Counted from the stretch's first letter, positions 18,178-63,768 are shown. The stretch is 64,000 nt of DNA from a virus (IMGVR_UViG_3300042275_000481:38172-102171); one strand, 5' to 3'. Notes: generated by a model from the letters alone, not told the origin. Made by a program: numbers and translations.

Positions 18178-19363
18178 CTTAATTGGACTATATCTTCTAT
18201 AAATTGTTTAATTTATAGCAGTGCACTTCGAGTGGTATCGATCTCCACCCTACTCCGCTACATTCATCACGGATAGTCTCTTGACCTTCCTATTTCTAGG
18301 CTTGGCACAGGATAATTAGGTAACTTCCCCTGTTAGCATAACTTTTAACTATCATTTCCTATAGTTCCAAAAGTAAGTTATACACCTCGCTGATCCACGA
18401 GTTCACACTGTTTTACTACGACACTGTTATCGGTATAATATTTTCTAGGTTTTATTTCTAAATCTGGTGATATTAATAAAATATTAAATTCTTTTAATGA
18501 ATTATAATCTTTTTTATAAAATGTATCTAATATGATTTCTATATTATTTTCTTCACTGTAAGGTATTCTTAAAAGAGTTATCGAATTTTTTCTACAATAA
18601 TCATTTTTCATCTTATCATGAATTAATGCTGTTTTGTATCCTCTTTTTGAAGAATTAAAATGTTGTTCGCCATCAAATTCTATTAATTGATTTAGTATAT
18701 CTATATAATCAAATGGCATTTTCCTTTTATCTTTACAATCATCAAATCTATATTCACTATCTAAATAAAGATTTTTATCTTGTAGATATTTTGCAATATT
18801 TGATGAACCACTTCCTGGAATAGCACCAACTCTTTTAAGGTTTGCACATTCAGGACATCTTTTTCCTTGTTGAAAATTATTTGGAGTAGTATAAAAATAT
18901 GTTTCACAAATCTTATGCTTAACCCTTACTCTCATTTTGTTATTCCCAGAGTAAACAGGAGCATCTAATAATTCATAATCTGGATCATTAAATATACCTT
19001 CTAAATAATTTTCTTTCACGAGATATTGCCCTCTGCCTATTTTTTTCCGATTTTCATACTTTACTCTTCTTAAATTTTTTGTCTCGCAAGAACAGCGAAT
19101 CTTTCCTTCTTGAAATAATTTTCAGGAAGTGTTTATAACTTCACCACAGTCATGTTCTATCATAATAATAGATTTATTATTTTTATAATTCTTGAAATCA
19201 TATTTTTTACTTAAATTAAACCTAGAATCTAATTTTTTTATTTTCTTTTCTAATTCATTTCTTGTTAATCTCTTTGGCATAATTTTTCTCCTCCATATTA
19301 TAAATTACATAATATATTGTTTAGATTATGAATCAGAAAAGTTATAAAAATTTAATTTCTTTT
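18178..19363 (-). mobile_element. group I intron (minus strand) in the RecJ-like gene, carrying a decayed homing endonuclease gene
   Basis: Exon 1 ends with U of GAT (GDYD). The intron ends in G (..aag) before gct-gac-ggt (ADG). R element (revcomp of ggatagtctcttgacc, 18271-18286) and S element (revcomp of gactatatc, 18186-18194) are present in the correct order for a minus-strand transcript. Confidence 0.6.
18378..19280 (-). pseudogene. frameshifted intron-encoded homing endonuclease (zinc-ribbon + Vsr/DUF559-like nuclease family)
   Basis: ATG at 19278-19280 with a GGAGG RBS. The N-terminal module (IEHDCGEVI) reads in one frame, then shifts (~19120) into the 18378-19019 ORF. That ORF starts with GTG and contains CPECA and FDGEQHF...LLRIPY. 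Confidence 0.5.
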
Positions 19364-19621
19364 ATCGTAGTCGCCAATAATACAATAATGTTTATCCTTA
19401 TTATTAGCAATATAATCCACAAATTGTTCCTGATTTCCAATACCTGTGATTTCTGATTGTAAAAACTTTGTCAACCAGCTCTTCTTGTACAAATCTTGGA
19501 AATCCTCAAAAATCTTTTGAGGGTCAGAATAGCCGCTTTCTTGAAAGATTACAGACTCAACTTGTGAGTAGCCTTCAATCATCGGGTAATCTGATAATCT
19601 TTTTTGTATGTATTTCCTCAT
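19364..19621 (-). CDS. RecJ-like DHH-family exonuclease, exon 1 of 2
   Basis: 89-aa ORF ending ...HYCIIGDYD(KRN*). GDYD is the N-terminal half of RecJ motif I. The stop codon lies within the intron. Confidence 0.6.
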
Positions 19622-19637
19622 TTATATCTTTCCTCCT

Positions 19638-20078
19638 TTAATTTCTTAACATTAATAGCACCTTCAATTCATCTGATTGGTTTTCTTCTTTAACCCACTG
19701 ATTAAGCCGTGGGCTTACGTTTGATATTTTTATTTTATCGATATTCTCTAAAAAGAATAATTCTGAGAATTTCTGAGTTGATTCGAATGTTCTCCAAAAC
19801 ATATAGATTTCATATTTTAAATCTTTGTCACCTACGATACTATTAAAGAGGTCCATTACTATATTTAATGAAAATGTATTCAAAACTTTATGTCTCATTA
19901 CAATGCATAATGCGTTCACTTTCATATAAGTTCCTCTTTGAGAATCAATTATTTTAGGTAAATATACTTTGTAGAAGCTATTTGGTAATGTATCATATCT
20001 TTCAAGCACATAACGATAACCTTTTGCTCGTATATCTTCTTTCAAATGCTTTCTTTTTGCTCTTTGATTTTTACTCAT
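19638..20078 (-). CDS. hypothetical protein
   Basis: 146-aa ORF with an RBS. Confidence 0.4.
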   Translation of the reverse strand: MSKNQRAKRKHLKEDIRAKGYRYVLERYDTLPNSFYKVYLPKIIDSQRGTYMKVNALCIVMRHKVLNTFSLNIVMDLFNSIVGDKDLKYEIYMFWRTFESTQKFSELFFLENIDKIKISNVSPRLNQWVKEENQSDELKVLLMLRN

Positions 20079-20121
20079 AAAATACTCCTTTCTAATTGAT
20101 TGTTGATATGGGTTTTAATAT

Positions 20122-20160
20122 TAAAAAAATAGCGGGAATAATCCCGCTATTTATCATAAT
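20122..20160 (-). terminator. intrinsic terminator (agcgggattattcccgct plus T-run)
   Basis: Hairpin followed by a TTTTTTT run on the minus strand, directly downstream of the 20163 ORF. Confidence 0.55.
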
Positions 20161-20162
20161 AT

Positions 20163-20720
20163 TTATTTTAGATACTCGTCTAACACTGTATTTAAACGGT
20201 CTAGCTTAGCAACCTCTAAAACAGGGTGCTCAATGTATCTTTCTGGATGTTTCGCAAAGCGAATAACTTCTTTCACATCTTTTTTCGGATATTGAGTCCA
20301 ATCAAAGACTTTTCTCCCTAGAAGTTTTCCAGAAATGGTGAGTTCTTCTAACCAGTCATAATATTGATCGCGGCCAATTCTATGTTTTTTAAGAACTTCA
20401 AATACTTTCGCATCTGTATTCTTAACTTCAAGAATGACCTTTGCAGCAGTTTTGAAATAAACTGTGCGGTTGGTTAAAATGAGATTTTGTTGTTGCCATA
20501 CATTTTGAGATTGTTTGTATTTTCCAGCTTTTGTGCCATCTTTGTAGCGTCTGGAAAATTTCTCATTTTGTACGTCTAGCTGGGAATAATTTTTCCAAGC
20601 TCTTTTTGCTTTTTGGCGGTCAACTTGAAGTTGGTCAGCCAAAGTGTTGATCATTTGATTCGTGATTTTCTTTTTCTTACTAGTCGCAAGAGTGAAAATC
20701 AAAGTTTCTAAAGCGTTCAT
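20163..20720 (-). CDS. hypothetical protein
   Basis: 185-aa ORF downstream of gap. Confidence 0.4.
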   Translation of the reverse strand: MNALETLIFTLATSKKKKITNQMINTLADQLQVDRQKAKRAWKNYSQLDVQNEKFSRRYKDGTKAGKYKQSQNVWQQQNLILTNRTVYFKTAAKVILEVKNTDAKVFEVLKKHRIGRDQYYDWLEELTISGKLLGRKVFDWTQYPKKDVKEVIRFAKHPERYIEHPVLEVAKLDRLNTVLDEYLK

Positions 20721-20748
20721 GATTTCCTCCTTTTAATTTATTTTTTTG

Positions 20749-21765
20749 TTACTTAATACTCTTCTTAACTAAATATTCTGCAGTTCTAATAAGTTGTGCA
20801 GCATAACTCATTTCATTATCATACCAGGAAATGACCTTAACAAGCTGTTTCCCGTCTACTTCAATAAGTTGAGTTAATTGTCCGTCAACTAATGAACCGT
20901 AAGTCATACCGATTGTATCGCTTGAAACGATTGGGTCTTCTGTGTAACCAAGTGTTTCATTTGCAGCAGCTTTCATTGCGTCATTGATTTCTTGAACTGT
21001 AACATTTCTGCTAAGCTCAACTGTCAAGTCTACAACAGAACCTGTTGCTGTTGGTACACGTAAAGCAATACCATCCAATTTACCTTTTAGTTGAGGTAAT
21101 ACAAGTCCAACTGCTGATGCAGCGCCTGTAGATGTTGGAATAATATTTGATGCAGCTGTTCTGCCGCGTCTTGAATTTACACCTTTTGGATGTGGTCGAT
21201 CTAATGTCACTTGGTCATTTGTATAAGAGTGAACTGTTGTCACATAACCTTTAACAATACCAAATGAATCATCTAAAACTTTTGCAACTGGTGCTAAACA
21301 GTTTGTAGTACAAGATGCACCACTAATTACTGTTTCTGAACCATCAAGTGTTTCATGGTTTACACCAAATACGATCGTTTTTAAGTCACCTTTTGCTGGT
21401 GAATTGATAATAACTTTTTTGGCACCTGCTGTGATGTGCGCCATTGATTTTTCTTTTGACGCATAAAAGCCGGTACATTCTAAAACGACATCAACATTTA
21501 ATTCTCCCCAAGGAAGTTGTGATGCATCTTTTTCAGCATAGATTCTAATCTTTCTCCCGTCAACTACTAAGTAGTCTCCCTCAACGGAAATCTTATCCGA
21601 CATATAACGACCTTGTGTGGTGTCATATTTTAATAGGTGTGCTAATTCAGCAGGATTAGATAAATCGTTAATCGCTACCACTTCAAATGTTGGATTGTCA
21701 TGTACAAGTCTGTACGCTAATCTCCCGATACGACCGAAGCCGTTAATTGCAATTTTTGCAGCCAT
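20749..21765 (-). CDS. gap: type I glyceraldehyde-3-phosphate dehydrogenase
   Basis: N-terminal NGFGRIGR Rossmann motif. Active-site [10 protein letters not shown]. Full-length 338 aa with conserved WYDNE near the C-terminus. Confidence 0.9.
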
Positions 21766-21863
21766 AGTTTATTTCCTCCTTTTATATTTTATTTCACTTC
21801 TCGAACCAATATTATAATATATGTTTAAAGAGAAAGATAGACCATATTGGTCTATCTTTCATT

Positions 21864-22412
21864 TTATTCAGGAATTACTAATATACCATAATTTCCATCA
21901 TTACGTTTGTAAATAGTCGAAATTAAGGCATTATTATCTTTATCTTTGAAAATAAAGAATGAGTGTCCAAGAAGTTCCATTTCTTCAATTGCTTGTTCAC
22001 GAGTTATAGTTTCTAACGGAATAAACTTTTCCCTTGCAATCTTTCCTGTTTCTTCTTGTTCTTCATTATAAATTGCTTCTAATTCTTCTTGTAAATCAAG
22101 AATATTAAAAGCTAATTTATTTCCATTTCTATGCTTCATTCGCATAGTTTTATATTTTCTAATTTGTCCTTCTAATTGATTAACAACTTCAATAACAAGA
22201 GCATAAAAATCTGTACCAGAATGTGACGCTCGGATGTTGCCTGGAATTGCTATTTCTAATTTTAGTTGATGTCCTTCTTTCTTGAGCGTTGCTCTTCCAT
22301 CTACACTATCAACAAACCTCTTTAACTTTTCTACCTTCTCAATAACATAAGTTTTCATTGCATCGGTAAATTCAATTTTTTTCTTGTCTGAGTAGAATTC
22401 CATAATTTTCAT
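21864..22412 (-). CDS. hpf: ribosome hibernation promoting factor (long HPF/YfiA family)
   Basis: N-terminal RaiA/HPF fold region. C-terminal dimerisation domain ...EEMELLGHSFFIFKDKDNNALISTIYKRNDGNYGILVIPE is characteristic of long-form HPF of Firmicutes. Confidence 0.75.
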   Translation of the reverse strand: MKIMEFYSDKKKIEFTDAMKTYVIEKVEKLKRFVDSVDGRATLKKEGHQLKLEIAIPGNIRASHSGTDFYALVIEVVNQLEGQIRKYKTMRMKHRNGNKLAFNILDLQEELEAIYNEEQEETGKIAREKFIPLETITREQAIEEMELLGHSFFIFKDKDNNALISTIYKRNDGNYGILVIPE

Positions 22413-22518
22413 CCCTTCTTTTTTAATTATAATTTATTTCTTCTTCAGGTCATATTTATAATATATAAATAAAAGCATATTTACCCCCTTAAGTCTAGAG
22501 GTAAATATGCCTTATTTT

Positions 22519-22770
22519 TTATGCTAAGAACGCCTCTAGATCCTTTTTAGGTCTATAACCGACCATGGTTTGCATGTCATCTCCATCTAATTTAATTATA
22601 GTTGGGACTCCAGCAATTCCATACGACATAGCTTCTAATTGGCCTTCATCAGTGTCAATGTAATATTCTGTCATATCTAGGTTTTGTTCTTGTTTAATTT
22701 CTTCTAATATTGGTGTGATCATCTTGCAAGCGCCGCAATTTTGGGATTTGAATAATAATATTTTTGCCAT
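22519..22770 (-). CDS. thioredoxin/NrdH-like redoxin
   Basis: 83-aa thioredoxin-fold protein with a CGAC redox motif. cis-Pro region GVPTII. Next to the RNR gene. Confidence 0.65.
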   Translation of the reverse strand: MAKILLFKSQNCGACKMITPILEEIKQEQNLDMTEYYIDTDEGQLEAMSYGIAGVPTIIKLDGDDMQTMVGYRPKKDLEAFLA

Positions 22771-22985
22771 TGTTAGTTCTCCTTATTGTTTTTGTACTTT
22801 TTTAATCTTTGCCCAATCGTTTGTTCAGAGCAGTTAAAAATTCTTGCAATTTCTCTTTTTTTAAGGCCTTGCTCCAGTAATTCTTTCATTTTTTTGTCAT
22901 CTTTTTCTGAAAAATTTTTAGATACTGTATTCTTTTTAGCTTTACTGCTAGATTCTAAAAGTTTAATTGGAATTTTTATATGTTC

Positions 22986-23555
22986 TCATGCTTTTCTCTG
23001 TAATATTTTTGCAACATAACGATCGGATATTTTAAATTTCTTTCCGATTTCTATCATAGATATTCCATCTGAGAATAATTTGAATATTTCAATAATATTT
23101 TCTTTTTTTAACTTTGAATTCTGATGGTCTTCACCTTTTAAAGTGTTTATTAATCCATTTTTATAAGCATGAATAACATTTTTACTAATTGACATTATTT
23201 CTAAATTTCCAATTTTATTATTTAGTTTATTTCCATCTTTATGATTTACGATAAAATTTTTTGGAATTTCACCTATAAAATTTTCTGCAACTAATCTATT
23301 TATTCTAAAGGATTTATTCTTATTATTTTTATGAAGTTTTATAGTATAATATCCTCTTTCTAAAATTCTTTTTTTTATATAGCCATATTGATTTTTAACC
23401 CTGCCAAAATTTGAAATATAATAGTTATTATATCCTTTAATATTCTTTCAAATTTCGTCTAAGATAGGTTTTTGATCTTCAACGATAGGTTTATTAAAAT
23501 TTGCTTTAAGTAAACCGGCTTTAACAGCATGTTTTATATTTTCAGATTGGGTAAC
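22986..23555 (-). pseudogene. decayed HNH homing endonuclease (second NUMOD4-HNH module plus NUMOD1/HTH tail) interrupted by in-frame TGA codons
   Basis: Reading-through translation gives ...NNLE*VTQSENIKHAVKAGLL...DEI*KNIKGYNNYYISNFGRVKN...VNHKDGNKLNNKIGNLEIMSISKNVIHAYKNGLIN... The second TGA falls at the conserved Trp of the NUMOD4 WK-I-GY motif. The 3' part corresponds to ORF 22986-23195. Confidence 0.45.
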
Positions 23556-23870
23556 TCATTCTAAATTGTTCATATGGTTATTGAGTTTGTTTCCATCTTT
23601 ATGATTAACAAAAGATTTATTACTAGGATTATCAATAAACATTATAGCTACTAATCTATGGACCATGAATTGTCTTCTTTCCATATTTTTCTGTAAAGAT
23701 ACTCTATAGTATCCATTTTCAGATAATCCTAGTTTTTTCAATTGTCCCTTATATTTTTTGTTATTAATAACCCTATCTAATGATCTTATATTTCCTAGAT
23801 TTGATACTTGATAGTAACTCTCGTATCCAATTATATCTTTCCATATTTCTGTCATATTACCTACCTCCAA
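23556..23870 (-). CDS. HNH homing endonuclease (NUMOD4 + HNH_3 motifs), free-standing
   Basis: EIWKDIIGYESYYQVSNLGNIRSL (NUMOD4) and VHRLVAIMFIDNP...VNHKDGNKLNNHMNNLE (HNH). Confidence 0.65.
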   Translation of the reverse strand: MEVGNMTEIWKDIIGYESYYQVSNLGNIRSLDRVINNKKYKGQLKKLGLSENGYYRVSLQKNMERRQFMVHRLVAIMFIDNPSNKSFVNHKDGNKLNNHMNNLE

Positions 23871-23933
23871 TTTTTAACTATAATTAATTGTTATAAAAAA
23901 TTAAAAGTAAAATATATGATGTATGCTATAGGG

Positions 23934-24465
23934 CTACAATCTATCAGAAGCACAACTACCAGTAGCACAATCTGGATCTTCATCTGCTTCTTCTTTATAG
24001 TATTCATCAAGTTCTAAATATTTTGTTAGTAATTCGTGGGAAAGGTCATCTAATCCTTCAATAGCTTCTTCATATTCTTCTTTAGTAATAGTTTGATATG
24101 GAGCTTGTGCATATTGATGGTCAGTCAATGGTAAGAATGAAACCGCTGTGAAAGATTTCCAGTTTTCATATAACCATTCTGTTGCTGCTTCCCACTCATC
24201 ATTTTGAACAGATACTGTAATCGATGTATTTTGGTCAGTATAGTGTTCTTGGAATCTCTTATATCTGTCTAGTTGTTCAATAACTGAGACGTCAAATTTA
24301 GTTCTCTTTGCTTCTGATTTAACTGGGAAATATATTACAGCTGTTGTATCAGGTCTTGTAATATCATCTTCAATTCTCCAGTTAAGCTTACTAATCACTT
24401 TGAACATTGGGTTTGTTTTATCAATGCGAATAGTTCTATAATAATATGGACTGTGGCTCATATGT
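23934..24465 (-). CDS. nrdJ: class II (NrdJ-like) ribonucleotide reductase, exon 3 of 3 (C-terminal part)
   Basis: Continues the conserved ...SS-G-x-E-P...Y-x-RR region as (V)HMSHSPYYYRTIRI. C-terminal redox cysteine pair DCATGSCASDRL. Confidence 0.65.
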
Positions 24466-25938
24466 CGTTTTATTCTATCAAGGTCGTTAATCTTGATACG
24501 TTCTCTTATGAACTGCTTATATTTTCATATAAGACTAGACTATATCACGATCCTTCTAAGGATCCTTTCCATTTCGATTTAAGGGATTTTCACCCACCAC
24601 TTGGCCCTACTCCTGTTGACAAATTTATATTAGCGCTTGTCCTTGGGATAGTCGTTGCACATCTAATTTAATTTTAACTTTTCTTTTAAGGTTTCTTCTA
24701 TTTTTAATTTGATTTTTTTCTTAGAGAGACTAGATACATCAATCCTCAAGAGCTGCTCGCCTGCAAAGTTATTTCTAATATTATCCCTTTGTTTAATAAT
24801 TTCAAGTTCCTTTGCTAGACTATCTCTATTAAATGATTCTTTATGAAATCTTCCATCAATTTCTATAAATTTAATATCATCATGTTCTATTTTAAAATCA
24901 AATTCAAATTTATCATTACCTATTTGTTGATAGTAGTTTTGTTGAAATATTATGTTATTTTTTTCTAAAAATAAACGAGTTATTTTTTCTCCATAAGGTT
25001 CTCTTTCACAGGTACATTGTAAATTTTGGTTTATCATATTTACAGTAGTATACCATTCTCTTGGTTTATCATATTTACAATTAATATGTTTTACCTTTAT
25101 TTTAGAATGAGCATTTTTGTAGTTAGATGAATCTAATAATTCAAAACCTTTCTGTTCTAAGAGTTTTTTAACATCTTCAATAGATCTTGTCCTAGATTTA
25201 ACTCGTTTTTCCTGGCCACAAATAGGACACCCAAAGCCGCGAGTTAAATTATTTGGAGAAACTTTTCACTCATGACCACAAATATTATGTCTATGTAATA
25301 TCTTAGTATCTTTATTAATATATTCTTCTAAAGCAATATATTCATTATTATAAATATCATATAGATTCTTTTTATACTCTTGGTTCGTAAGCTTAAATGT
25401 ACCATTGCAAATAGGACATCCATGTTTACCAGATAAAATAGAATTAGGCGTTGTTTTTCACTCATGACCACAAATATTATGTCTAATAGTGATAGCTGTA
25501 CGAGTTCCTTTATATTCTTCTAATGCAGTATATTCATTCTCATAAATATGATGGAGTTTAAATCTAAAAGCTCTATCGTCAAGTATTCTTCCACTACAAA
25601 TAGGACATCGCTGATTTGATGATAAAAATTTTACCAGTGGCATTTTTCATGTGAAACCACAATCTAGATGCTTAAATTCCATCAGTGATTTATTATTAGT
25701 ATAATCTGATTCATTAGAAATTAAAATATATTTTCCATGCCCTTTTTCAAAAACCTCATTTTTTATATCAACAAATTGTTTTCGTTTCATACAATACACT
25801 CTCCCTCTTATTAAAGAATAATATATTGTTTAGTTAAAATTAAATTATTTTGCTCAGGATTACCATATCTTTTGACTTAGGCTTCCCTGAATTAAAAAAG
25901 TTTTCTTATACTATTGCTAGTATAAGGCGCAATATTTT
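24466..25938 (-). mobile_element. group I intron (RNR intron 2) carrying a heavily decayed homing endonuclease gene
   Basis: Proposed 5' splice site after U of ..gctggcgt. The 3' end ...aataaaacg (omega G) is homologous to the end of the ORF-less Clp intron. R (24645-24660) and S (24548-24556) elements present. The 5' portion (aattcagggaagcc...atcctgagc, 25850-25905) resembles the 5' portion of intron 3. Confidence 0.55.
24663..25790 (-). pseudogene. multiply frameshifted homing endonuclease (zinc-ribbon + Vsr/DUF559-like family)
   Basis: ATG at 25788-25790 with an AGGGAG RBS. Fragments are MKRKQFVDIKNEVFEKGHGKYILISNE..., then ...NQRCPICSGR... (25458-25643), then the nuclease-domain remnant IEIDGRFHKES...LLRIDV (24663-25037). 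All are in different frames. Confidence 0.5.
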
Positions 25939-26798
25939 ACGCCAGCGCTACTTGAATTAGCAACTAATCCAAGTGTTCCTGAAGGTTTAACAGCACTTAC
26001 ATTAAGTGAATGAGATAAACCAAGTTCATCAGCATACTCATCTGCAGACCTTCTAATTACTCCGTAAAGCCAATCCATAAATTTATTTTCTTCTTCAATA
26101 TTCATACCTGTTGCTTCAATCATATCCATCCATGAAGATGGTGAAACACCGAGTAATCTATCTTCTTCTTGTGTTTTGTCCCACTCTTCTAATTCAAGCG
26201 TGTTCATGGTGACACGATAAGCAGAACGAGTTAAAACACGAAGGTCTTTTTCAAGTAAATCATAGTTGATAGTTTTATCTTCATTTAGGTAAAATACAAC
26301 ATTGAATGTAACTAAGTTACATGTCTGTTTTGAGCGTAACAAAATCTCGGCACAAGGATTGAGTCCTCTAGCTTGAGGGTGTCTCTTCTTGATTTCACTT
26401 TCATTCATAAATCCTGGTTCACCGAATGACTTGATATTCTCCATCCAAGCAGTTACTTCTTCCTTAGTTGGTTCATATCCTTCTTCGACAACCATTGTAT
26501 TATTTGAAATCCAATAGTGAGAAATTTTTCTATCACTAAAATCCGTGAAGTTTGTTTTGGCTTTTGCCATTTCATCATCTGTTCTTGAGAATAGTGCAAT
26601 CATAGCACTTCTTCTTACACCACCAACAACAATCGCTTCAGCAATTGAGTTTGCAATGTGCATCATATGAATTGGTCTTAGTTTTCCATCAATTGGCGCT
26701 TTTGTAAGAATGTTTCCGTGACTATCTAAATAATCTCCAGTAACAACTTCATGCATCTTTTTGATAGATTGAATGAATGGTTCGGCACCACTTGCATA
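25939..26798 (-). CDS. nrdJ: class II (NrdJ-like) ribonucleotide reductase, exon 2 of 3
   Basis: Contains GGVRRSA, the active-site loop NPCAEI (N-x-C-x-E) and the KPSGTLGLVANSSSAG motif. The exon ends inside the Val codon ahead of intron 2. Confidence 0.7.
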
Positions 26799-27987
26799 CA
26801 TATGTTAGCTCATAGTTTCTTATGAGATCAGACTATATCTTCAACCCTAGAACTATCTAGGATTGCCTCGCACTTCGAACTATAAGTTCTACTCTACTCA
26901 CTTCTTTACTTAGATTATGTTCTAAGCTATGTTTTCGATAGTCGTTGCACGTTCAAATATATCATCTAGAATTTCATGTATCTGACTAATTTGATTATAT
27001 CTTATTCTTATTAAATTGATATTATTTTCTTTTGCTATTTCATTTTTTCTGAAGTCATTTTCTTTCAAAATTTTGAATGATTCTTCCCCACCCCAATTAT
27101 CTTGAGGTATAAAATGTTGTATTCCGTCAAACTCAACTATTAAATTTTTTTCTTTAATCCAAAAATCCAATCTTAAATTTCCAAATAATTTATGCGTTTT
27201 ATTATATTTATATTTAATATTTTTAGAATTCAAATAATCTATAATAATTCGTTCACCATTTGAAGCTTGACAAAATGGACATCTTTGACCTTGTTGAAAG
27301 TCATTAGGTCTCATAACAAAAGTATTTTTGCATTTTTTATGATAATGTTTTATTTTTGTATATGAATTAATATATTCCTCATTTACAGTATATTGATTAG
27401 AACCTAATTTCTTAACTAAATTTTTATACTGTTGATGTGTTTTTCTAATTCCGCCATTGCAAACCGGGCATCTTCTTCCAGCTGAGATGAATTTATTGGC
27501 TGTTGCATAGTAATCATTTCCACATTTTTTATGTGTAAATTTCAACTTACTGTGATTATTCTCATAATTACCTTCAACTATATACTCATCTTGTACTAGA
27601 TCATATATTTGTTTTTGTATATCTTCTAGTGTGAATGCATGAAATTTTTTTCTTTTTTCATTAGCACATAACGGACAACGTCTTCCTTGTTTGAATTTAT
27701 CAGGTGTTACTGAATAAATATTACCGCAAGCAAGATGTTCTACTTTTAATTTAGTTTTCGAAGTAGTATAAGTTTCTAACCATTTATACTCATTCGCATC
27801 ATCAAATTTTTTATTAATATCATTTAAGAATTTTTTATGTTTAGTCATTTTAATACAGTCCCTTCTATAATAATATATAAGCTTCGCTCAGGATTGTCTC
27901 CATCATTACATGGTAAGAGTTTCCCTGAATTCACGAGGTTGCTATAATATATTGTTATATTAAGGTGGCTATGCTTTTGGGGCGTTA
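26799..27987 (-). mobile_element. group I intron (RNR intron 1) carrying an intact homing endonuclease gene
   Basis: Exon 1 ends ...TFGG with U before the in-intron TAA. The intron ends in G just before tat-gca-agt (YASGAEP). R (26927-26940) and S (26830-26838) elements present. Confidence 0.6.
26922..27848 (-). CDS. intron-encoded homing endonuclease: four tandem zinc-ribbon (CxxC...CPxC) modules plus a C-terminal Vsr/DUF559-like PD-(D/E)xK nuclease domain
   Basis: Repeats of H..CGN.Y...P..F..G.RCP.C. C-terminal IVEFDGIQHF...D...K...INLIRIRY. The 3' end reads through the R element of the intron core. Confidence 0.6.
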   Translation of the reverse strand: MTKHKKFLNDINKKFDDANEYKWLETYTTSKTKLKVEHLACGNIYSVTPDKFKQGRRCPLCANEKRKKFHAFTLEDIQKQIYDLVQDEYIVEGNYENNHSKLKFTHKKCGNDYYATANKFISAGRRCPVCNGGIRKTHQQYKNLVKKLGSNQYTVNEEYINSYTKIKHYHKKCKNTFVMRPNDFQQGQRCPFCQASNGERIIIDYLNSKNIKYKYNKTHKLFGNLRLDFWIKEKNLIVEFDGIQHFIPQDNWGGEESFKILKENDFRKNEIAKENNINLIRIRYNQISQIHEILDDIFERATTIENIA

Positions 27988-28986
27988 ACCACCGAAGGTT
28001 TTGAGTGGCTCTCCAGCTGGTCGGATGTTATTAAACACCATTCTAATATTCTTATAATCATGGTCAATTTCATAACTCATGTATTTTAAGAATTCAGTTA
28101 CAGCTTTACCCCAACCATCTCTGCTGTCTCCAACAATAATTGAAATAGTTCCATCAAGTTTTAGAACCTGAGTTTTGTCTTTTCTCATTGTCTTTGGAAG
28201 TGGGTTGTAAGGCACAACTTGTAATTTTACATCGCTTCTAAATCTTGGAAGTTTTTCTGCAACATCCCAAGTAATTCTGTATCCAACTCCAGCACCAACA
28301 GATAATAGATATAAAATATCATAGAATGAGTCTAATGTGTCTGGTTCAATAAATGAGCAGTTGAATAAACTTAAAGGATAACGTTCTGCAGCACTTGATC
28401 CACCTGTGAACATTGCACGTCCACTAAGGAAAGCTCTAAGATTAAACTGCATGTCAAATAATTGCTCAGCTTCTCTTTTAAGAAACTGCATAACTTTTTC
28501 TTCACGTTCACGAGTATCCATATTGATATTATGGTCTGTGGCACGTAAAATTGTTTCTTTAAATGTTTCTCGTCTACCTAATTCAACTACATCTCGACTA
28601 TATGTTCTCAAATAAGTAAATTTACTTACAGGGCCCATATGTTTTGGGTAGCTGTCATAGTTCACAAGGAAACTCGGTGCTAAGTACTCAGAGCTATAAA
28701 CAACATCTTTCAACGATTCTCTTCGTTTCGCTCTTGCATTTCTTCTTAATATATAATGCTCAACAGCTTCAGGATATTCCCTGATTGCATGTTGCACTTT
28801 GTTTTGAATCTCTTCTATTCCAATACCATCATAAACAACTACAGATTTAGCCATCTCTTGAATCTTTGAGTATAGTTCCTCTGCTCTTTCTTCTCCATAA
28901 GTCTCTCTGAACGCTTTGTAGATTGCCTGTTCGATTTTGGAGACATCGAATTTTTGCAATTCACCAGTTCTTTTACGAATATACAT
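27988..28986 (-). CDS. nrdJ: class II (NrdJ-like) ribonucleotide reductase, exon 1 of 3 (ATP-cone N-terminus)
   Basis: N-terminal ATP-cone (RKRTGELQKFDVSKIEQAI). Exon ends ...KTFGG. Confidence 0.7.
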
Positions 28987-29273
28987 GACCCATCATCCTT
29001 TCCCTCAATTTCACAAAAAACGGGATATAAGGCTAATATGCTTAAGTGTATAACAACCTTATTTCTTCTAGACATGAAGTATAATTTTTTAGTAAGAAAT
29101 TTTTATTGTTATTCATAAACATATCATCTTTTGTTTTTCAGAAATTGGACAGTAACCACTGTCAGAAGTATTTCTTAATTTATTGTTGTTAGGATTTTTC
29201 GTTTTTAAATTATATACTTTTTGTAAAAAATTTAATCAAAAAAAGAAGGATTCGAAAATCCTTCTTATATTAG

Positions 29274-30719: not shown

Positions 30720-30772
30720 ATATTTTCCTCCTTTTGGAAAAGAGGGGGAAAGATTATTCCCCCAATTTTATT

Positions 30773-31369
30773 TTATTTATCAGATGGTTTCTTGATTTCG
30801 TCAATAATTCCATATTTTAATGCATCTTCTGCAAACATCCAACTGTCACGTTGTGTATCTTTTTTAAGTTGAGTAACTGTCTTGTTACATGATTTTGCAA
30901 TCATCTTAAGCAATTTCTCATTTAATTGTTTTGTAAAGTCAAGAGAAACTTCCATATCTTGGATATTTCCTTGAGTTCCACTAGATACTTGATGAAGCAT
31001 TACAGTTGCATTTGGTAGCGCAAAACGCTTGTCACCTTGAGACAGAATAGCTGCGCCCATAGATGCAGCAAGACCTTTAACACAAGTATAAACTGGTGCT
31101 TCAATATCTTTCATAACATCAATAATAGCCAATCCGTCAAGAACGGATCCTCCCGGACTGTTGATGTATAATTGAATAGGTTGTTTGCTAATTTTATTCA
31201 AATGTAACAATGTTTGTGTAATATAGCTAGCTTGTCTTTCATCAACAACACCTTCTAAATGGACAACACGGTCGTCAATTTGTGCACGTTGAATATCATA
31301 TTTAGGTTCTGAGTAATAAGTCCCTGAACTAGTCATAGGCTTATTAATATTTTTCGGATCAAAATTCAT
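30773..31369 (-). CDS. clpP: ClpP-family serine protease (S14; ClpP/NfeD-like)
   Basis: YINSPGGSV, Ser nucleophile in GLAASMGA, His in MLHQVSSG. 198 aa. Confidence 0.8.
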   Translation of the reverse strand: MNFDPKNINKPMTSSGTYYSEPKYDIQRAQIDDRVVHLEGVVDERQASYITQTLLHLNKISKQPIQLYINSPGGSVLDGLAIIDVMKDIEAPVYTCVKGLAASMGAAILSQGDKRFALPNATVMLHQVSSGTQGNIQDMEVSLDFTKQLNEKLLKMIAKSCNKTVTQLKKDTQRDSWMFAEDALKYGIIDEIKKPSDK

Positions 31370-31433
31370 ATTTTCCTCCTTGATTTTTAGAATTGAGGGG
31401 AAGATTTCTCTTCCCCAATTTAATATTTTTTAT

Positions 31434-32543: not shown

Positions 32544-32612
32544 AATTTGTACCTCCCAATTTTCTTAAAATTTTTTACTCAAAGTTTAAAAGAAGGGAAT
32601 CCGAAGATTCCC

Positions 32613-38851: not shown

Positions 38852-38948
38852 AATTTTGTTTCCTCCCTGTTATTTGTTTTGTCGAGTTATAATTTTCCAG
38901 TAACTCGCATTTATAATATATAGTTTAAAACTTATTTAAAAATACAAC

Positions 38949-39599: not shown

Positions 39600-39614
39600 A
39601 GCATATTTATTTCT

Positions 39615-51063: not shown

Positions 51064-51201
51064 ACATACCTCCTATGAAGCTTAAATTCTCATGGTGCTT
51101 CAAGTATATAATATATTTTTATATTAATTTTAAACGTTTAAATTTTTTTGACTATGATAAATAAGGACTAACTTTTGTTAGTCCTTTTAATTAAAATAAT
51201 A

Positions 51202-54045: not shown

Positions 54046-54138
54046 AGTAGAATTCCTCCTTTTTTATTCATAATTCATCTATATAATTTATTGTTTAATT
54101 AAATAAGGTGCAAATTCTAAATTTTTAAAATTTTTATC

Positions 54139-57983: not shown

Positions 57984-58328
57984 TTATAGGGCACCTCCTT
58001 CTTTCTCATCATACTTCATTTTTTTCTTAATACGCTTTTCTTCTTTTACAATAGATTTAGGAAAGTTATAAACAGTTACAAGCACTATATCTTTTTCTGT
58101 CATAGAAAATATAAATACAAAGCTTCCGTAAACTTTGACAATTTGGTTTTTTCCCTTATAACGTTCAAAATACTTTTTACCTTTTTCACTATTGAAATCA
58201 TCTATTTCCATTCCAAAAATAAATGCTTTCTCTGCAAAACGTCTCAGCTTTCCTATTGTTATTCTTTTACCTGTTTCTAGGATTCTTTCCTTACCACGTT
58301 GTAATGCGTGGTCACTAACAACAATCAT
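57984..58328 (-). CDS. hypothetical protein
   Basis: 114-aa ORF overlapping the upstream radical-SAM gene stop. Confidence 0.35.
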   Translation of the reverse strand: MIVVSDHALQRGKERILETGKRITIGKLRRFAEKAFIFGMEIDDFNSEKGKKYFERYKGKNQIVKVYGSFVFIFSMTEKDIVLVTVYNFPKSIVKEEKRIKKKMKYDEKEGGAL

Positions 58329-59654: not shown

Positions 59655-59662
59655 AATATCGC

Positions 59663-60169
59663 CTACATTAACTCAAATCTTAATTTCAAAGATTCTGGGA
59701 ATTTCTTTTCATATATTTTAAATTCCCAATATATGTCTCTAAAATTATTTCTAAACAATCTTCCGCCAGTAGAATAATAACCAGTAAGAACTCTGTAACA
59801 AGTTTCACTGACATTGTCACCCTTTTTATAGTCAATATCATAATAGCGAGAATCATCGCTAAATGTATAAAAAGTTGAAACGTGTTGTAATTTAGTTGGT
59901 CCAATTGAACCGAAAAATACTTGAAGATTAGCAGCTCGACCAGTATAATCATTGGTTAAAGCATGGTCATCCTCTCTCATTGCTTCGTCAATTATTGTAA
60001 TTTTTTCAACTATTTCATCATACAAGTCACTAATGTCTTTACCTTCAAAGAAGTCATCCTTCTCTTTTTGTAGTTGTAACTTTCGTTCTTCTTTTTCTAT
60101 ACGTTGTCTTTCAATTTCTTCCTGCTCTCTAATTTTAGTAGCTTTCTGTTCTTTCCATTTTTTAAACAT
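59663..60169 (-). CDS. hypothetical protein with N-terminal coiled-coil
   Basis: 168-aa ORF. Confidence 0.4.
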   Translation of the reverse strand: MFKKWKEQKATKIREQEEIERQRIEKEERKLQLQKEKDDFFEGKDISDLYDEIVEKITIIDEAMREDDHALTNDYTGRAANLQVFFGSIGPTKLQHVSTFYTFSDDSRYYDIDYKKGDNVSETCYRVLTGYYSTGGRLFRNNFRDIYWEFKIYEKKFPESLKLRFELM

Positions 60170-60223
60170 AGAATAACCTCCCTTTAATAAAATAAAGAGA
60201 ACCCGAAGGTTCTCTTTTTATTT

Positions 60224-60397
60224 TTAGTCTAAATATTCTTCATCATCAAAATCATCGTATTCTTCACCTTCGAATACTTCGTCAAGTTCTTCCTCAGTGA
60301 TTGCTAATTCTTCAATTAGTTCATCATCTGAATAACCGTGTTCTTGAAGTAAAACGATTGCGTTGTAAAGTAATACCATTGCTCTTTCTTTGTTCAT
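60224..60397 (-). CDS. small acidic protein (57 aa, below the ORF-track cutoff)
   Basis: ATG at 60395-60397. Ends ...EEYDDFDDEEYLD. A hairpin terminator (agagaaccttcgggttctct) lies immediately downstream at ~60194-60222. Confidence 0.35.
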   Translation of the reverse strand: MNKERAMVLLYNAIVLLQEHGYSDDELIEELAITEEELDEVFEGEEYDDFDDEEYLD

Positions 60398-60407
60398 GAT
60401 GTATCCT

Positions 60408-61496
60408 TTATAGTTCTATAATATTTTCTAAAATTTGTTCAATCTTATTAAAATTCCAATAGGGTATCCTAATAAGTTTTATACCTTTTTGCTTACAATA
60501 TTCATCTTTTAAATGGTCATTGTATTTTTGTTCAGACAACTTATCTAAACCGAAAATAGGTTCATAATGAAATTCACCATCATATTCTATTAAGGTATTA
60601 CTATCAGATAGAAAAAAGTCAAATCTTAGTGGATTGATAAATTTCAAATCTTCAAACGAAAACTCTCTTTCAAACTGTATCTTTCTATTTTCTAGCCATT
60701 CTGATATTTTATTTTCACCCTTTGATGACTTACAAATAGGGCACCTATCACCAGATAGGAATCTTGTTGGACTAACGTCATATATATTACCACACTTATT
60801 ATGTTTTATTCCTATTTTTGTATGTGTGTTTGTATAATCTTCTAAAACACTATATTCGTCGCCTATTAGATTAAAAACTTCTTCCTTAAATTCTTTGGTG
60901 GATTTCTTAAATTTTCCATTACAAATAGGACACCTATCACCAGATAGGAATCTTGTTGGACTTACTTTATATTCACTATCACACACAAGATGACGCATTT
61001 TTATCTTTGAGTCGCAATTAACATAATCACTTAAAACACTATATTCGTCACCTACTAGATTAAAAACTTCTGCTTTAAAGTCCTCGGTAGATTTTTTTAT
61101 CAGTCCTGCACATTTTGGACAACCATGTCCTTTTAAGATATTTACAGGTGTTGGTTCATATTCAAAACCACATTTTTTGTGCCTCATAAGTATAGGAGTT
61201 TTGTTATTTTTATAATCACCCAATACTTCATATTCAGGTCCTAATATATCCATAACATCGTCTTTAAAGGTATCAATAGTTTTTCTTAGACCGTTTCCAA
61301 CTTTTATAATAGCACATTTTGGACAACCATGTCCCCGATTTATCATTCGGCTAGGATGTGCTTCAAATATATTTCCACACTTCTTGTGCTTCATGGTTAT
61401 TTTTGTATTGGTGTTTGTATACTCTCCTAAAACTTCATACTCATCACCAAATTTTACTTCAACTTCTTTAATAAATGATTCAGTAGTTCTTTTCAT
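60408..61496 (-). CDS. free-standing homing endonuclease (zinc-ribbon repeats + Vsr/DUF559-like nuclease)
   Basis: Five tandem H.KCG..(Y/F)...P...L.G.GCP.C modules. C-terminal IEYDGEFHYEP...D..K..YC...GIKLIRIPYWN. Confidence 0.6.
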   Translation of the reverse strand: MKRTTESFIKEVEVKFGDEYEVLGEYTNTNTKITMKHKKCGNIFEAHPSRMINRGHGCPKCAIIKVGNGLRKTIDTFKDDVMDILGPEYEVLGDYKNNKTPILMRHKKCGFEYEPTPVNILKGHGCPKCAGLIKKSTEDFKAEVFNLVGDEYSVLSDYVNCDSKIKMRHLVCDSEYKVSPTRFLSGDRCPICNGKFKKSTKEFKEEVFNLIGDEYSVLEDYTNTHTKIGIKHNKCGNIYDVSPTRFLSGDRCPICKSSKGENKISEWLENRKIQFEREFSFEDLKFINPLRFDFFLSDSNTLIEYDGEFHYEPIFGLDKLSEQKYNDHLKDEYCKQKGIKLIRIPYWNFNKIEQILENIIEL

Positions 61497-61558
61497 AAAA
61501 ACCTCCCTATACCTAGAATGTATAAATAAATTATTTGTTCTAAGTAAAGGGATTATTT

Positions 61559-62218
61559 TTACAGTTCAATTATGTTACTCTTATATTTTGTTTGGTCGAT
61601 GTCCTCAATATAGACACCCAAGCTTTCTAAAAGAATATATCCATTTTGCATATTTTTACTTACCATTGTTCGGTAGTCAATAAGTGGTCGTAGATATTCA
61701 GGAATTCTTTCCACACCTTTTGGAACAGCAACAACGCTCATTCCAAATCGTGAAATATCAATTTCAGGTTCATCTACGTTTCGATTAAATACTGTGCGAC
61801 TAATTGCGCCATATTTTTTCGGATAAGTATCTTTTAGTTTCTCTAATTCTGGATGATTTTCATCTACTGTTTTTAACTTAAGTAGATTTACTTTTTCTGG
61901 TGGAACTATTTGATTTTCAGGTTCTAGCGCATTCCATATAATTGCTCCTCTAACCTGTTCAAGCGTAGATGGATCTTTATATTGCTCAAATTGCTCTATA
62001 CTCTTTGGAAGTGAATATAATAATTCTCCGCCTCTTAGTGATTCTTCAATTTCTAAACCTAATTCATCAAATTTATTAATAATAGTTCTAATATTAATAT
62101 CTTCCGCTGACAGAATATCTTCCTGTAAAATTGTCGTAAATTGTTCACGTAATTTCTTAGGAACGTTTGTTTTCCTTATGGCTAACATATATCTTCCATT
62201 GAGTTCGTTAACTCTCAA
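61559..62218 (-). CDS. 3'-terminal exon of an intron-interrupted gene of unknown product
   Basis: The ORF begins with TTG inside conserved intron-3' sequence (..cataagagaacg|cattgagag..). The true acceptor is probably ~62180-62200. Confidence 0.45.
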   Translation of the reverse strand: MRVNELNGRYMLAIRKTNVPKKLREQFTTILQEDILSAEDINIRTIINKFDELGLEIEESLRGGELLYSLPKSIEQFEQYKDPSTLEQVRGAIIWNALEPENQIVPPEKVNLLKLKTVDENHPELEKLKDTYPKKYGAISRTVFNRNVDEPEIDISRFGMSVVAVPKGVERIPEYLRPLIDYRTMVSKNMQNGYILLESLGVYIEDIDQTKYKSNIIEL

Positions 62219-62455
62219 TGCGTTCTCTTATGAACTGCTCATACTTTCATATGAGATGAGACTATATCTTCATCTTTCGATGTTTCCTGTTTCGGACCAC
62301 TTGGTCCTACTCCTTACGGATAGTCGTTGAACCTTCATCTCATTGAGATGTTTGGCTGCGGATTGCCCAATCTACACACTTTTCAAGCCTTGGCTTTTCC
62401 TCACGGATCGCAGTGGCAGTGTAGCTCTAAGGGGTTTCCCGCAATTAAGGAAATT
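62219..62455 (-). mobile_element. ORF-less group I intron (unknown-gene intron 2); boundaries approximate
   Basis: R (62318-62333) and S (62249-62257) elements, plus the gctgcggattgcccaatct and gctctaaggggtttcccgcaatt blocks. Nearly identical to Clp intron A. Confidence 0.55.
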
Positions 62456-62461
62456 TTATAA

Positions 62462-62550
62462 GAGCATAACTGTTTACCCTTAATATCAAGAACTGGTTTG
62501 TCTAATAGACGCCCAAGTTCACCTGTAATTAAACCGGCATACATAATTTT
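62462..62550 (-). CDS. internal micro-exon of the unknown intron-interrupted gene (approx. boundaries)
   Basis: Only one frame is open between the two introns: KIMYAGLITGELGRLLDKPVLDIKGKQ... It begins right after an intron-terminal G (..gagtttaattg|aaaatt). Confidence 0.4.
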
Positions 62551-63768
62551 CAATTAAACTCGCTAAGTTTAATTCGCTTTCGCTGCTCATATTTTCATAT
62601 GAGATAAGACTATATCTTCAGATATTTATTGAACGTAAATATCTGTCTTCCTTTTCCAATAGGCTTCTATTGTACTCGCATTGCGATAGTCGTTGAACTT
62701 TTTTCTTAAAATTAATTCTTCAAGTATATTTTCAAGTTGTTTATAATTTTTATATGATAATCTTAATAGTGTATACTTAGATAATTGTATAATATTATTT
62801 TTTCTATTGTCTCGTTCTCTAATAACATCAATAGATTCAAATAATGATTTTTCTTTAAAATGTTGTATTCCATCATATTCAATTATTAGATTTAAAGAGT
62901 CAATAATAATATCTACTCTTAAATCCGTATTGAATAATTTAGAATCAAATTCAAATAAAATATTATTTTTTTCTAAGAACTGAATTATTTTTCTTTCACC
63001 TTTAGAAACTTTCTTAGAACAAATAGGACATCTACTAGCAACAGATTTTGATATGAAATTGTTCGCTTTTACGTCCCATTCATGACCACATTTATTATGT
63101 CTTAGTTTAATTTTTGTTCTAGTGTTTGTATATGGTGATATTAATGAATACTCATCCCCAACAGTTTCCTCTAGTTTTCTTTTAAACATTTCTTCAGTCC
63201 AAGTTCCTTTCCCAGAACAATACGGACAAGAATTTTTTTGATTCAAAAGATTATTTGCTCTCATTTTGAATTCATGACCACATTTATTATGCTTAAAAAT
63301 TGATGATTTATTTGCATAACCTGAATAATCTAATACTGAATACTCATTATCTAATTCTATTTCTAGTCTTTTTATAAGATTTTTTTCAGTTAATCTTATA
63401 GAACCTGAACATTTAGGACACCTTCTTCCATTATTAAACGTATTAGGTGCTACTAAATACTCATGGCCACATTTATTATGTCTTATTAAGATTTTAGTTT
63501 TTGAATTTATATAATCATTCCCAAGAACTGTATATTCCATTCCAACTTGATTTTTTACTTTGTGTTTAAAACTTTCTAGTGTATCTTTTTTCATAATATC
63601 ACTCCTTAATAATTTGTTCAATGAGTGACAACATGAAATAAAAAGTTCTTAATTTTAAGAAACTTAGCTGCTGATTGCCCAATCTTTCAGATTTTCAAAC
63701 ATTCACGCTCACTTTTGCAAGTCACGTTGTAGTTCTGAAAGCTCTAAGGGGTTTCCAGCAATTAAAAA
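62551..63768 (-). mobile_element. group I intron (unknown-gene intron 1) carrying an intact homing endonuclease gene; 5' boundary approximate
   Basis: R (62674-62689, inside the 3' end of the HE ORF) and S (62618-62626). 5' blocks gctgctgattgcccaatct (63661-63679) and gctctaaggggtttccagcaatt (63742-63764). Confidence 0.55.
62626..63621 (-). CDS. intron-encoded homing endonuclease (zinc-ribbon repeats + Vsr/DUF559-like nuclease)
   Basis: Four H.KCGHE(Y/F/W)...N....RCP.CSG modules. IIEYDGIQHF...D..R..K......LLRLSY. Confidence 0.6.
   Translation of the reverse strand: MNKLLRSDIMKKDTLESFKHKVKNQVGMEYTVLGNDYINSKTKILIRHNKCGHEYLVAPNTFNNGRRCPKCSGSIRLTEKNLIKRLEIELDNEYSVLDYSGYANKSSIFKHNKCGHEFKMRANNLLNQKNSCPYCSGKGTWTEEMFKRKLEETVGDEYSLISPYTNTRTKIKLRHNKCGHEWDVKANNFISKSVASRCPICSKKVSKGERKIIQFLEKNNILFEFDSKLFNTDLRVDIIIDSLNLIIEYDGIQHFKEKSLFESIDVIRERDNRKNNIIQLSKYTLLRLSYKNYKQLENILEELILRKKFNDYRNASTIEAYWKRKTDIYVQ

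Follow-up and report, generated by a model that had tools for sequence, protein, structure and literature searches.

The closest described counterparts of the elements analyzed here are the phage group I introns of subgroup IA (IA2-like), such as those of T4 td, nrdB, and sunY, of Twort orf142 and nrdE, and of the SPO1 and Bastille DNA polymerase genes (background in part from PMC3984707). We analyzed a stretch of 64,000 nt (the window; IMGVR_UViG_3300042275_000481:38172-102171) from an uncultivated large phage of low GC content (31.7%), in which seven group I introns, all on the minus strand, split four genes inside 46 kb. They resemble the phage IA introns in the R and S elements (GUUCAACGACUAUCC and AGAUAUAGUC), in the P7.1/P7.2 insertion, in their location within conserved motifs of polymerase and ribonucleotide reductase (RNR) genes, in their looped-out endonuclease open reading frames (ORFs), and in the occurrence of several introns per gene. 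They differ in the genes interrupted, which here encode a monomeric class II NrdJ, a divergent family B polymerase, a Clp ATPase, and a DHH phosphoesterase, and in their endonucleases, which are Vsr-like with zinc ribbons rather than of the GIY-YIG or HNH type. By BLAST, related introns were present in 226 Staphylococcus and 41 Bacillus phage records.

A survey of the Bastillevirinae (Herelleviridae) reported up to six introns in two genes per genome, with two or three per polymerase gene; these introns are mostly IA2/IA3-like, with ribozymes that an endonuclease loop divides into halves of which often just one can be detected (PMC11878797). As in the window, polymerase and RNR genes are interrupted in these phages, and one group of their endonucleases carries a VSR signature (PMC11878797). 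With its seven introns in four genes, the window equals or exceeds the highest counts of that survey, which lists no Clp or DHH targets (PMC11878797). The list of known targets is extended here to a Clp-type ATPase, interrupted inside its Walker A motif, and to a RecJ-like DHH protein. The introns themselves are a known kind of element that is very common in phages, present at a density at the top of the described range. The targeting of Clp and DHH genes adds modestly to what is known, as does the zinc-ribbon/Vsr architecture of the endonucleases; the pattern of TGA codons described below has a published precedent.

A described counterpart of the endonucleases is I-Bth0305I (PDB 3R3P; PMC3239194), likewise encoded in a phage group I intron and with the same C-terminal nuclease fold and a conserved set of acidic and His residues; the enzymes of the window match DUF559 in this part. 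The N-terminal NUMOD2 and helix–turn–helix (HTH) motifs of I-Bth0305I (PMC3239194) are replaced here by DUF4379/CapR zinc-ribbon repeats, and its ORF interrupts P5, whereas the ORFs of the window lie in P1 or P6. The precedent for the TGA codons comes from the Agate phages, in which Trp is preferentially encoded by TGA in the endonuclease of a group I intron that sits in an early gene, while the replication genes follow the standard code. Its authors proposed that synthesis of the endonuclease awaits the code switch, and found suppressor tRNAs in only 35% of code-4 phages (bioRxiv 10.1101/2021.08.26.457843).

Introns, junctions, and RNA structure

The introns, numbered I1 to I7 along the window, interrupt the DHH/RecJ-like phosphoesterase gene once and the genes of NrdJ (nrdJ), the Clp-type AAA+ ATPase (clp), and the divergent family B DNA polymerase (polB) twice each (Table 1), four genes whose functions lie in DNA or nucleotide metabolism and in protein quality control. 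We put at about 88% the probability that all seven are self-splicing introns of phage IA type that hold a P7.1/P7.2 insertion, each placed at a strongly conserved motif of its gene. The sequence-only reading of this DNA, which had proposed seven minus-strand group I introns in four genes, was borne out in its core by Rfam (in full for three copies and in part for four), by a covariance model (R1) made from three of the copies, by the P1/P7 core, and by the restored reading frames. This analysis demonstrated the features of sequence and structure, the precise junctions, the fold of the nuclease, and relatives that lack the introns.

Junctions were placed by reading frame, conserved motifs, and the U...G rule, and were then tested on uninterrupted homologs. 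The spliced ORFs were continuous across all seven junctions. Both polB joins aligned without gaps to the uninterrupted polB (654 aa, 78% identity) of a related contig, L119, as ATRNKKN/YAGLITGELGRLLDKPVLDIKG/LAIRKT (slashes mark junctions). The clp and DHH joins were equally gap-free against the uninterrupted genes of a second related contig, L120 (FAGPTG/VGKT, SAPG/YIG, and IIGDYD/ADG), where the clp homolog shows 62.6% identity over 717 aa. The spliced NrdJ was contiguous with Lactobacillus leichmannii RTPR (PDB 1L1L; E 3e-55) across FGG/YASG and SSAGV/H, and the Pfam family divDNApol matched with 101.5 bits as a single stretch over both polB junctions, versus 49 bits for exon 3 alone. L119 and L120 together lack the introns at five of the seven sites, so that the presence of the introns varies within this phage lineage. 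Without recognition of the introns, polB, nrdJ, clp, and the DHH gene would be misannotated as 11 fragments; the corrected coordinates yield complete proteins.

The boundaries proposed from sequence alone were exact for I1–I3, one base off for I5, and 5–35 nt off for I4, I6, and I7, and the exons joined at the polB coordinates given there produced no continuous frame. These errors arose because the hairpin and tail that follow P9 had not been counted as intron and because P1 of I6 and I7 had been missed. An earlier 3′ end at 62219 was rejected, as that base is an A and the frame breaks. The one at 33217 was also wrong, since a post-P9 hairpin with a short tail ending in the terminal G is intronic in I2, I4, I5, I6, and I7. 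Rfam placed P1 of I6 inside the 66-nt exon; this was ruled out by the reading frame, by the intron-less L119, and by the P1 pairing AAGGGU/GCUCUU, which make 62475 the first base of the intron.

In all seven cases the 5′ exon ends in U and the intron in G, and a P1 of 4–7 bp carries a U.G pair at the splice site, reaching 7 bp in I1 (CUACGAU/GUCGUAG) and in I7 (GAAGAAU/GUUCUUC). A P7 core is common to all copies. A MAFFT alignment of the seven ORF-deleted cores misaligned P3–P5 of I1–I3, and the helices were therefore checked individually. P4, P6, P7, and P8 are complementary in every copy and P9 in six, as are P7.2 and, where it could be assigned, P3; P2 is absent from I6 and I7, and P9 from I1. 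P3 and P8 each have seven different sequences, one per copy, and remain paired, and the four variants of P4 are all paired as well (TTGCGGG/TCCGCAG, TTGCTGG/TCAGCAG, TTCAGGG/TCCTGAG, and ACAGG/CCTGT). Helices that pair despite differing sequence are what selection for structure is expected to leave. Between P7 and P3′, after GACUAUCC, every copy holds an insertion of 29–46 nt, which shows as an insert in the Rfam alignments and has the form GGAGUAG-hairpin-CGAAAU in six copies, I7 being divergent at the same place. This insertion corresponds to the P7.1/P7.2 elements of subgroup IA. Together with the BLAST relatives, it suggests a putative "IA2-like" placement within the subgroup.

All seven introns contain an exact copy of the S element GATATAGTC, which occurs eight times in the window where 0.64 occurrences would be expected. 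For the R element GTTCAACGACTATCC, six copies match with two mismatches or fewer (six window sites, 0.05 expected), and I1 retains just GACTATCC of it. The expectation that every copy would carry both elements thus held for S and, for R, in all copies except I1. The eighth GATATAGTC, at 1139-1147 on the plus strand, has neither R nor other core elements near it and is most likely a chance occurrence.

In Rfam, the model RF00028 (Intron_gpI; gathering threshold 50 bits) matched three introns above gathering: I5 with 98.5 bits (33681-33948), I6 with 91.7 (62238-62540), and I4 with 85.4 (33229-33506). Over short ranges, the other four gave partial matches: 41.1 bits for the 3′ half of I3, 30.7 for that of I2, 25.1 and 19.9 for I7, and 23.1 for the post-ORF core of I1. 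The covariance check proposed for the copies was therefore positive for I4–I6 and partial for the rest. An E-value scan of 17.5–29 kb with Rfam returned no intron match, because the ORF inserts defeat the filters and small sub-ranges are required. R1, built from the 3′ halves of I4–I6 alone and run over the whole window with filters off, gave as its next-best matches exactly the other four copies: I7 with 65.6 bits (E 4e-11), I2 with 36.6, I3 with 25.1, and I1 with 18.8. After these seven, noise reached 13.3 bits or less; the window therefore holds seven copies of the family and no eighth.

Inteins, group II introns, and insertion sequence elements were dismissed, as the inserts are either noncoding or hold separate, self-starting ORFs and match the group I model. 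The gene at 38949-39746, considered as a further intron site, is free-standing and not within a split gene.

In the pathway established for group I introns, from which the mechanism here is inferred, the transcript would fold around each intron, with the internal guide sequence (IGS) pairing with the last 4–7 exon bases to form P1. An external guanosine bound at P7 would attack the 5′ splice site after the terminal U of the exon, and the freed exon would then attack after the terminal G, leaving an intact mRNA. Two internal exons are very short, 66 nt in polB (62476-62541) and 133 nt in clp (33497-33629), and each lies between two related introns. Exon skipping or mispairing of guide sequences around them is conceivable, and events of this sort have reportedly been seen in phage Twort.

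Several observations weigh against the reading of all seven elements as self-splicing introns that carry such endonucleases. As whole elements, I1, I2, I3, and I7 stay below the Rfam gathering score, a shortfall that we ascribe to the ORF inserts of 0.9–1.2 kb splitting their cores. P3 of I1 is uncertain (18206-18411): with its sole good pairing, CAGUGU/GCACUG, P3 and P4 would be separated by two hairpins, an unusual arrangement in a group I intron. The endonuclease ORFs of I3 and I7 overlap core helices and could impair folding, and those of I1 and I2 are broken by TGA under the standard code. Searches of the PDB with the endonuclease, by phmmer and by profile, gave no significant match, I-Bth0305I included. 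With covariance scores this low, some copies (I1, I3, and I7, for example) could be nonautocatalytic, either needing a protein cofactor or being splicing-dead in a gene already inactivated; in the Bastillevirinae survey, about half of the experimentally tested introns spliced only in infected cells (PMC11878797). We nevertheless hold this to be quite unlikely, as all exons have intact frames and conserved catalytic motifs, P1, P7, and the U/G boundaries are intact in each copy, and polB and nrdJ are likely required by the phage.

Table 1. Introns, interrupted genes, endonuclease genes, promoter-like motifs, and in-frame TGA codons of the window (slashes mark splice junctions)
Feature	Position	Strand	Details
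Intron I1, 1186 nt	18178-19363	-	DHH/RecJ-like gene, site IIGDYD/ADGIMATT
Intron I2, 1473 nt	24466-25938	-	nrdJ, site SSAGV/HMSHSPYYY; helices P1–P9.1 verified
Intron I3, 1189 nt	26799-27987	-	nrdJ, site PLKTFGG/YASGAEP; helices verified
Intron I4, 300 nt, ORF-less	33197-33496	-	clp, site ITGSAPG/YIGHDD, codon phase 1; helices verified
Intron I5, 309 nt, ORF-less	33630-33938	-	clp, within Walker A, GPTG/VGKT; helices verified
Intron I6, 290 nt, ORF-less	62186-62475	-	polB, site VLDIKG/LAIRKT; no P2
Intron I7, 1253 nt	62542-63794	-	polB, site ATRNKKN/YAGLITG (KKxY motif); no P2
DHH/DHHA1 (RecJ-like) gene	16744-19621	-	exons 19364-19621, 16744-18177; Pfam DHH, DHHA1; spliced ORF
NrdJ (monomeric class II RNR, ATP-cone) gene	23934-28986	-	exons 27988-28986, 25939-26798, 23934-24465; Pfam; spliced ORF 796 aa
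Clp-type two-domain AAA+ ATPase gene	32613-35408	-	exons 33939-35408, 33497-33629 (133 nt), 32613-33196; Pfam AAA, AAA_lid_9, AAA_2, ClpB_D2-small
Divergent family B DNA polymerase gene	61559-64000	-	exons 63795->64000, 62476-62541 (66 nt), 61559-62185; N-terminal part beyond the window; Pfam PF20286
I1 endonuclease ORF, 300 aa	18378-19280	-	between 5′ splice site and IGS (P1 loop); one in-frame TGA
I2 endonuclease ORF, 375 aa	24663-25790	-	P6a loop; three in-frame TGA
I3 endonuclease ORF, 308 aa	26922-27848	-	starts in P6 loop, runs through P7 5′ strand; Pfam CapR, DUF4379, DUF559
I7 endonuclease ORF, 322 aa	62626-63594	-	starts after P6a, runs through P7, P7.1/7.2, and P3′ into P8 loop; Pfam DUF4379, CapR, DUF559
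Free-standing endonuclease paralog, 362 aa	60408-61496	-	four zinc-ribbon repeats and nuclease domain (Pfam); just downstream of polB
Free-standing NUMOD4-HNH gene, 360 aa	22773-23855	-	tandem NUMOD4-HNH modules and HTH; just downstream of nrdJ; three in-frame TGA
AACAATATATTAT sites, promoter-like	8897-8909, 19309-19321, 25818-25830, 27944-27956, 38913-38925, 44933-44945, 51108-51120, 54083-54095	-	
In-frame TGA, I1 endonuclease ORF	19122-19124	-	intron endonuclease ORF
In-frame TGA, I2 endonuclease ORF	25647-25649, 25458-25460, 25266-25268	-	intron endonuclease ORF
In-frame TGA, HNH gene	23556-23558, 23448-23450, 22986-22988	-	free-standing gene
In-frame TGA, DUF7487 gene	39615-39617	-	free-standing gene

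Sub-lineages of the introns

I5 and I6 are ~85% identical, and the remaining pairs are ~50–75% identical over the shorter sequence. The seven introns fall into at least three sub-lineages. In I4–I7, a long P5 extension accompanies a common P4-P5 block, AATTGCKGGAAACCCCTTAGAGC; the two nrdJ introns, I2 and I3, carry AATTCAGGGAA, a different P4, and a short P5; and I1 is compact, lacks P9, and carries its ORF in the P1 loop. Over ~45 nt, the P4′-P7 segment of I1 shares 93–95% identity with introns found in phages of Streptococcus and Lactococcus. I6 is a mosaic, with a P5 extension and 3′ tail nearly identical to those of I5 (62186-62475 vs. 33630-33938) and a P4′-P6 segment of 45 nt identical to that of I4 (33197-33496), a pattern that suggests recombination between co-resident introns of different genes and not simple copying.

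The sequence-only reading had described a single family of near-identical copies, each with two near-identical blocks and a common 3′ tail, recently spread within the genome. The blocks were found in four of the seven copies (I4–I7) and the tail CAGTTCATAAGAGAACG in three; near-identity applies to I5 and I6 and fails for the other pairs, and one family becomes at least three sub-lineages that differ in P4/P5, P9, and ORF position. Recent spread is plausible only for I5/I6 and for the 45-nt P6 segment of I4/I6. That all seven descend from one recent invader, amplified in this genome, would fit the similarity of I5 and I6, which share a P4-P5-extension block of ~95 nt with one mismatch, as well as the segment common to I4 and I6 and the tail common to three introns. 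It is, however, very unlikely given the low identity of the other pairs, the restriction of the diagnostic blocks to four copies, and the variation among copies in P5 architecture, in presence of P2 and P9, and in ORF position. The core of I1 also lies close to the Streptococcus/Lactococcus phage introns, and the mosaic I6 fits recombination better than simple copying.

Beyond the window, BLAST placed sequence related to I5 in 630 records of phages, from Staphylococcus, Pseudomonas, Escherichia, Bacillus, and other hosts; the best match of I5 to any phage intron is ~79% identical over 62% of its length, and a 23-mer from P4-P5 occurs exactly in more than 118 viral metagenome contigs (IMG/VR). 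In the phage collection, the sequences closest to I5 and I6 are in the 73-kb Pseudomonas phages phPLST, LP14, YH6, and Pa_WF01, one of which has the element annotated as "Intron_gpI". Identity is 78–79% across P3–P8, including the long P5 extension, although the host phylum and the phage type are unrelated. The module is thus horizontally widespread and not specific to the genome of the window.

Endonuclease genes and their expression

Four introns hold an endonuclease ORF and three are ORF-less, where three to four and four, respectively, had been proposed; the placement of these ORFs in P6 holds for I2, I3, and I7, while that of I1 is in the P1 loop. The 3′ end of the I1 ORF contains the IGS, and the guide sequence is thus part of its last codons. 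Stems flanking the ORFs close the ORF loops, and in I2 a perfect stem of 15 bp closes a loop of 1154 nt. The N-terminal parts of the proteins consist of two to four treble-clef zinc-ribbon repeats (DUF4379/CapR) of the form CGHE[W/Y/F]...CPxC, and the C-terminal domain scores just above the Pfam cut-off for DUF559. The C-terminal domain of the I1 ORF aligns with the nuclease domains of the other homing endonuclease genes (HEGs), and in the I2 ORF the Pfam families CapR and DUF4379 are matched only by a translation that puts W at TGA.

An AlphaFold model of the C-terminal nuclease domain of I7 reached a pLDDT of 83.5, and its best PDB match by Foldseek was I-Bth0305I (3R3P; prob 1.00, TM 0.66/0.74), followed by Vsr (1CW0/1VSR) and a DUF559 protein (3HRL). 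D35, E46, D48, H52, and D69 (D, E-x-D, H, D) are invariant in five paralogs and are candidate counterparts of the catalytic residues of I-Bth0305I. On this model, the intron endonucleases are Vsr-like ("EDxHD"-type) enzymes whose DNA-binding part is unlike that of I-Bth0305I. To our knowledge, a zinc-ribbon array joined to a nuclease of the Vsr/I-Bth0305I type has not been characterized as a homing enzyme, and the architecture is of possible interest for engineering.

Free-standing endonuclease genes sit immediately downstream of both polB (60224-61496) and nrdJ (22773-23855). No homolog of the polB-adjacent paralog was detected in the examined part of L119, where polB directly precedes the homolog of orf 59663-60169. 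The gene next to nrdJ, with TGA read as W, matches Pfam NUMOD4 and HNH_3 twice each and an HTH.

The motif AACAATATATTAT occurs at eight sites with at most one mismatch, against 0.8 expected, all on the coding strand and 25–65 nt upstream of gene starts. Three of them lie inside I1–I3, upstream of the endonuclease genes. Each intron endonuclease gene comes with a ribosome-binding site of its own, and those of I1–I3 also with this motif, which makes independent transcription probable. Catalytic activity, homing, and expression timing are here inferred. The intron endonucleases would most likely cut intron-less alleles in co-infecting relatives, whose repair would copy the intron in; alleles of this kind exist in L119 and L120, show 63–78% nucleotide identity around the sites, and are candidate substrates. 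The three ORF-less introns are unable to move alone. Co-conversion with I7, which carries an endonuclease and lies just 66 nt away, would take I6 along, while I4 and I5, with no nuclease nearby, would be stranded or would depend on a nuclease acting in trans.

In-frame TGA codons and genome context

Eight in-frame TGA codons were found on the minus strand, all in nuclease-type genes, namely the I1 and I2 endonuclease ORFs, the NUMOD4-HNH gene, and a gene of the DUF7487 family. These four ORFs, ~4.2 kb in all, are interrupted solely by TGA, with no TAA, TAG, or frameshift. At least five of the codons fall at W or aromatic positions of paralogs or sister repeats (CGHE[W], NLE[W], and EI[W]K): the three of I2 occupy the aromatic position of the CGHE[W/Y/F] zinc-ribbon repeats, and two in the HNH gene lie at NLE[W] and EI[W]K. 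Pfam domains continue across the TGA codons.

The 57 core genes (16,705 codons) use TGG 103 times and in-frame TGA never, and they stop with TAA in 45 cases, TAG in 11, and TGA in one. In the mobile nuclease genes there are 12 TGG and eight in-frame TGA (8/20 Trp codons). The difference in TGA-for-Trp between nuclease and core genes is significant (Fisher p = 1e-7), although partly circular, since the core ORFs were defined with table 11. TGA ends none of 27 long ORFs in relatives. The sole core TGA stop (58325-58328) is in an ATGA stop/start overlap, where reading TGA as Trp would add 16 residues. Within the window, the virion-protein gene (3659-5857), the only recognizable virion gene, and all other core genes are free of in-frame TGA. 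No tRNA genes, and hence no suppressor tRNA, were found in the window or in the related contigs L119, L120, and L126, with about half of the presumed genome covered. As in the Agate phages, TGA is rare as a stop and falls at Trp positions of intron endonucleases; the window differs from Agate and other recoded phages in that TGA is confined to mobile nuclease genes and absent from its virion gene, and in that no suppressor tRNA is seen in it.

The DUF7487 gene (38949-39746, minus strand) encodes an N-terminal C2H2 zinc finger and is readable only with its TGA as sense. A PD...xK-like segment (FHIPDFY...VNIKAS) in its product raises the possibility of another mobile nuclease.

Of the possible explanations of the TGA pattern, we provisionally rank a recoded phage first, then a code-4 host, then decaying ORFs. 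Under the last of these, the four interrupted ORFs would be pseudogenes in a standard-code phage that maintains only the ribozymes. They are indeed broken under table 11, the window and the flanking and related loci lack a suppressor tRNA, one core gene apparently ends with TGA in its ATGA overlap, and the virion protein gene has none. Decay is nonetheless unlikely to have left interruptions of a single kind across ~4.2 kb, with at least five of them at W/Y/F positions and with Pfam domains running through, in a phage where TGA is almost absent as a stop (one of 57 core genes and none of the 27 long ORFs in relatives). The same bias is reported for the intron endonucleases of the TGA-recoded Agate phages (bioRxiv 10.1101/2021.08.26.457843).

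Were the host itself to use genetic code 4 (TGA = Trp), the TGA codons would be ordinary codon usage without regulatory meaning. The near absence of TGA stops would fit, as would the GAPDH of the phage, nearest to proteins of Izemoplasmataceae and Acholeplasmataceae, which are wall-less relatives of Mycoplasma. Izemoplasma and Acholeplasma use the standard code. A code-4 genome of 32% GC should favor TGA, yet none of the 103 core Trp codons is TGA, against 8 of 20 in the nucleases. Assigning the host from a single gene is weak. TGA = Trp has been described for Mycoplasmatales, while the related uncultured RFN20 is reported with TGA as a stop (PMC7301438). We therefore consider a code-4 host improbable.

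The gene content around the introns gives further context. A near-identity search with 17–36 kb against 50,697 phage records returned only short intron or HEG fragments, so that no close relative is known among these records, and tblastn with a 947-aa ORF gave no match, as did scans of viral contigs with RNAP and NrdJ. Host-like accessory genes at 20749-22770, 30773-32543, and 49141-51063 encode GAPDH, an S30AE ribosome hibernation factor (HPF), thioredoxin, ClpP, and an RNA polymerase Rpb1-domain-5 protein; one product of these regions resembles an SPFH/band-7 protein, as judged by eye. The nearest named cellular proteins of the GAPDH are from Izemoplasmataceae, Acholeplasmataceae, and Fusobacteriaceae (69–73% identity), which may serve as a weak hint to the host. 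The distance between clp and the DHH gene is 3.7 kb in L120 (IMGVR_UViG_3300014203_000042, 8804-12542) vs. 13 kb in the window (19621-32613), where nrdJ, the HNH gene, and the genes of thioredoxin, HPF, GAPDH, and others lie between them. The nrdJ-GAPDH block is a lineage-specific insertion or rearrangement.

A more far-reaching possibility, which we advance only tentatively and regard as doubtful on balance, is that TGA as Trp is used by the selfish nucleases alone as a throttle or late switch, through recoding or weak UGA read-through, or else that the endonuclease genes shuttle between code-4 and standard-code phages and bring foreign codon usage with them, with intron recombination and possible skipping of the very short exons in addition. 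If this were true, recoding would be a dedicated control of homing-endonuclease expression and not a general late-gene switch. The confinement of TGA-Trp to mobile nucleases offers a clean natural test of the idea, put forward for the Agate phages, that recoding delays or limits the expression of the endonuclease.

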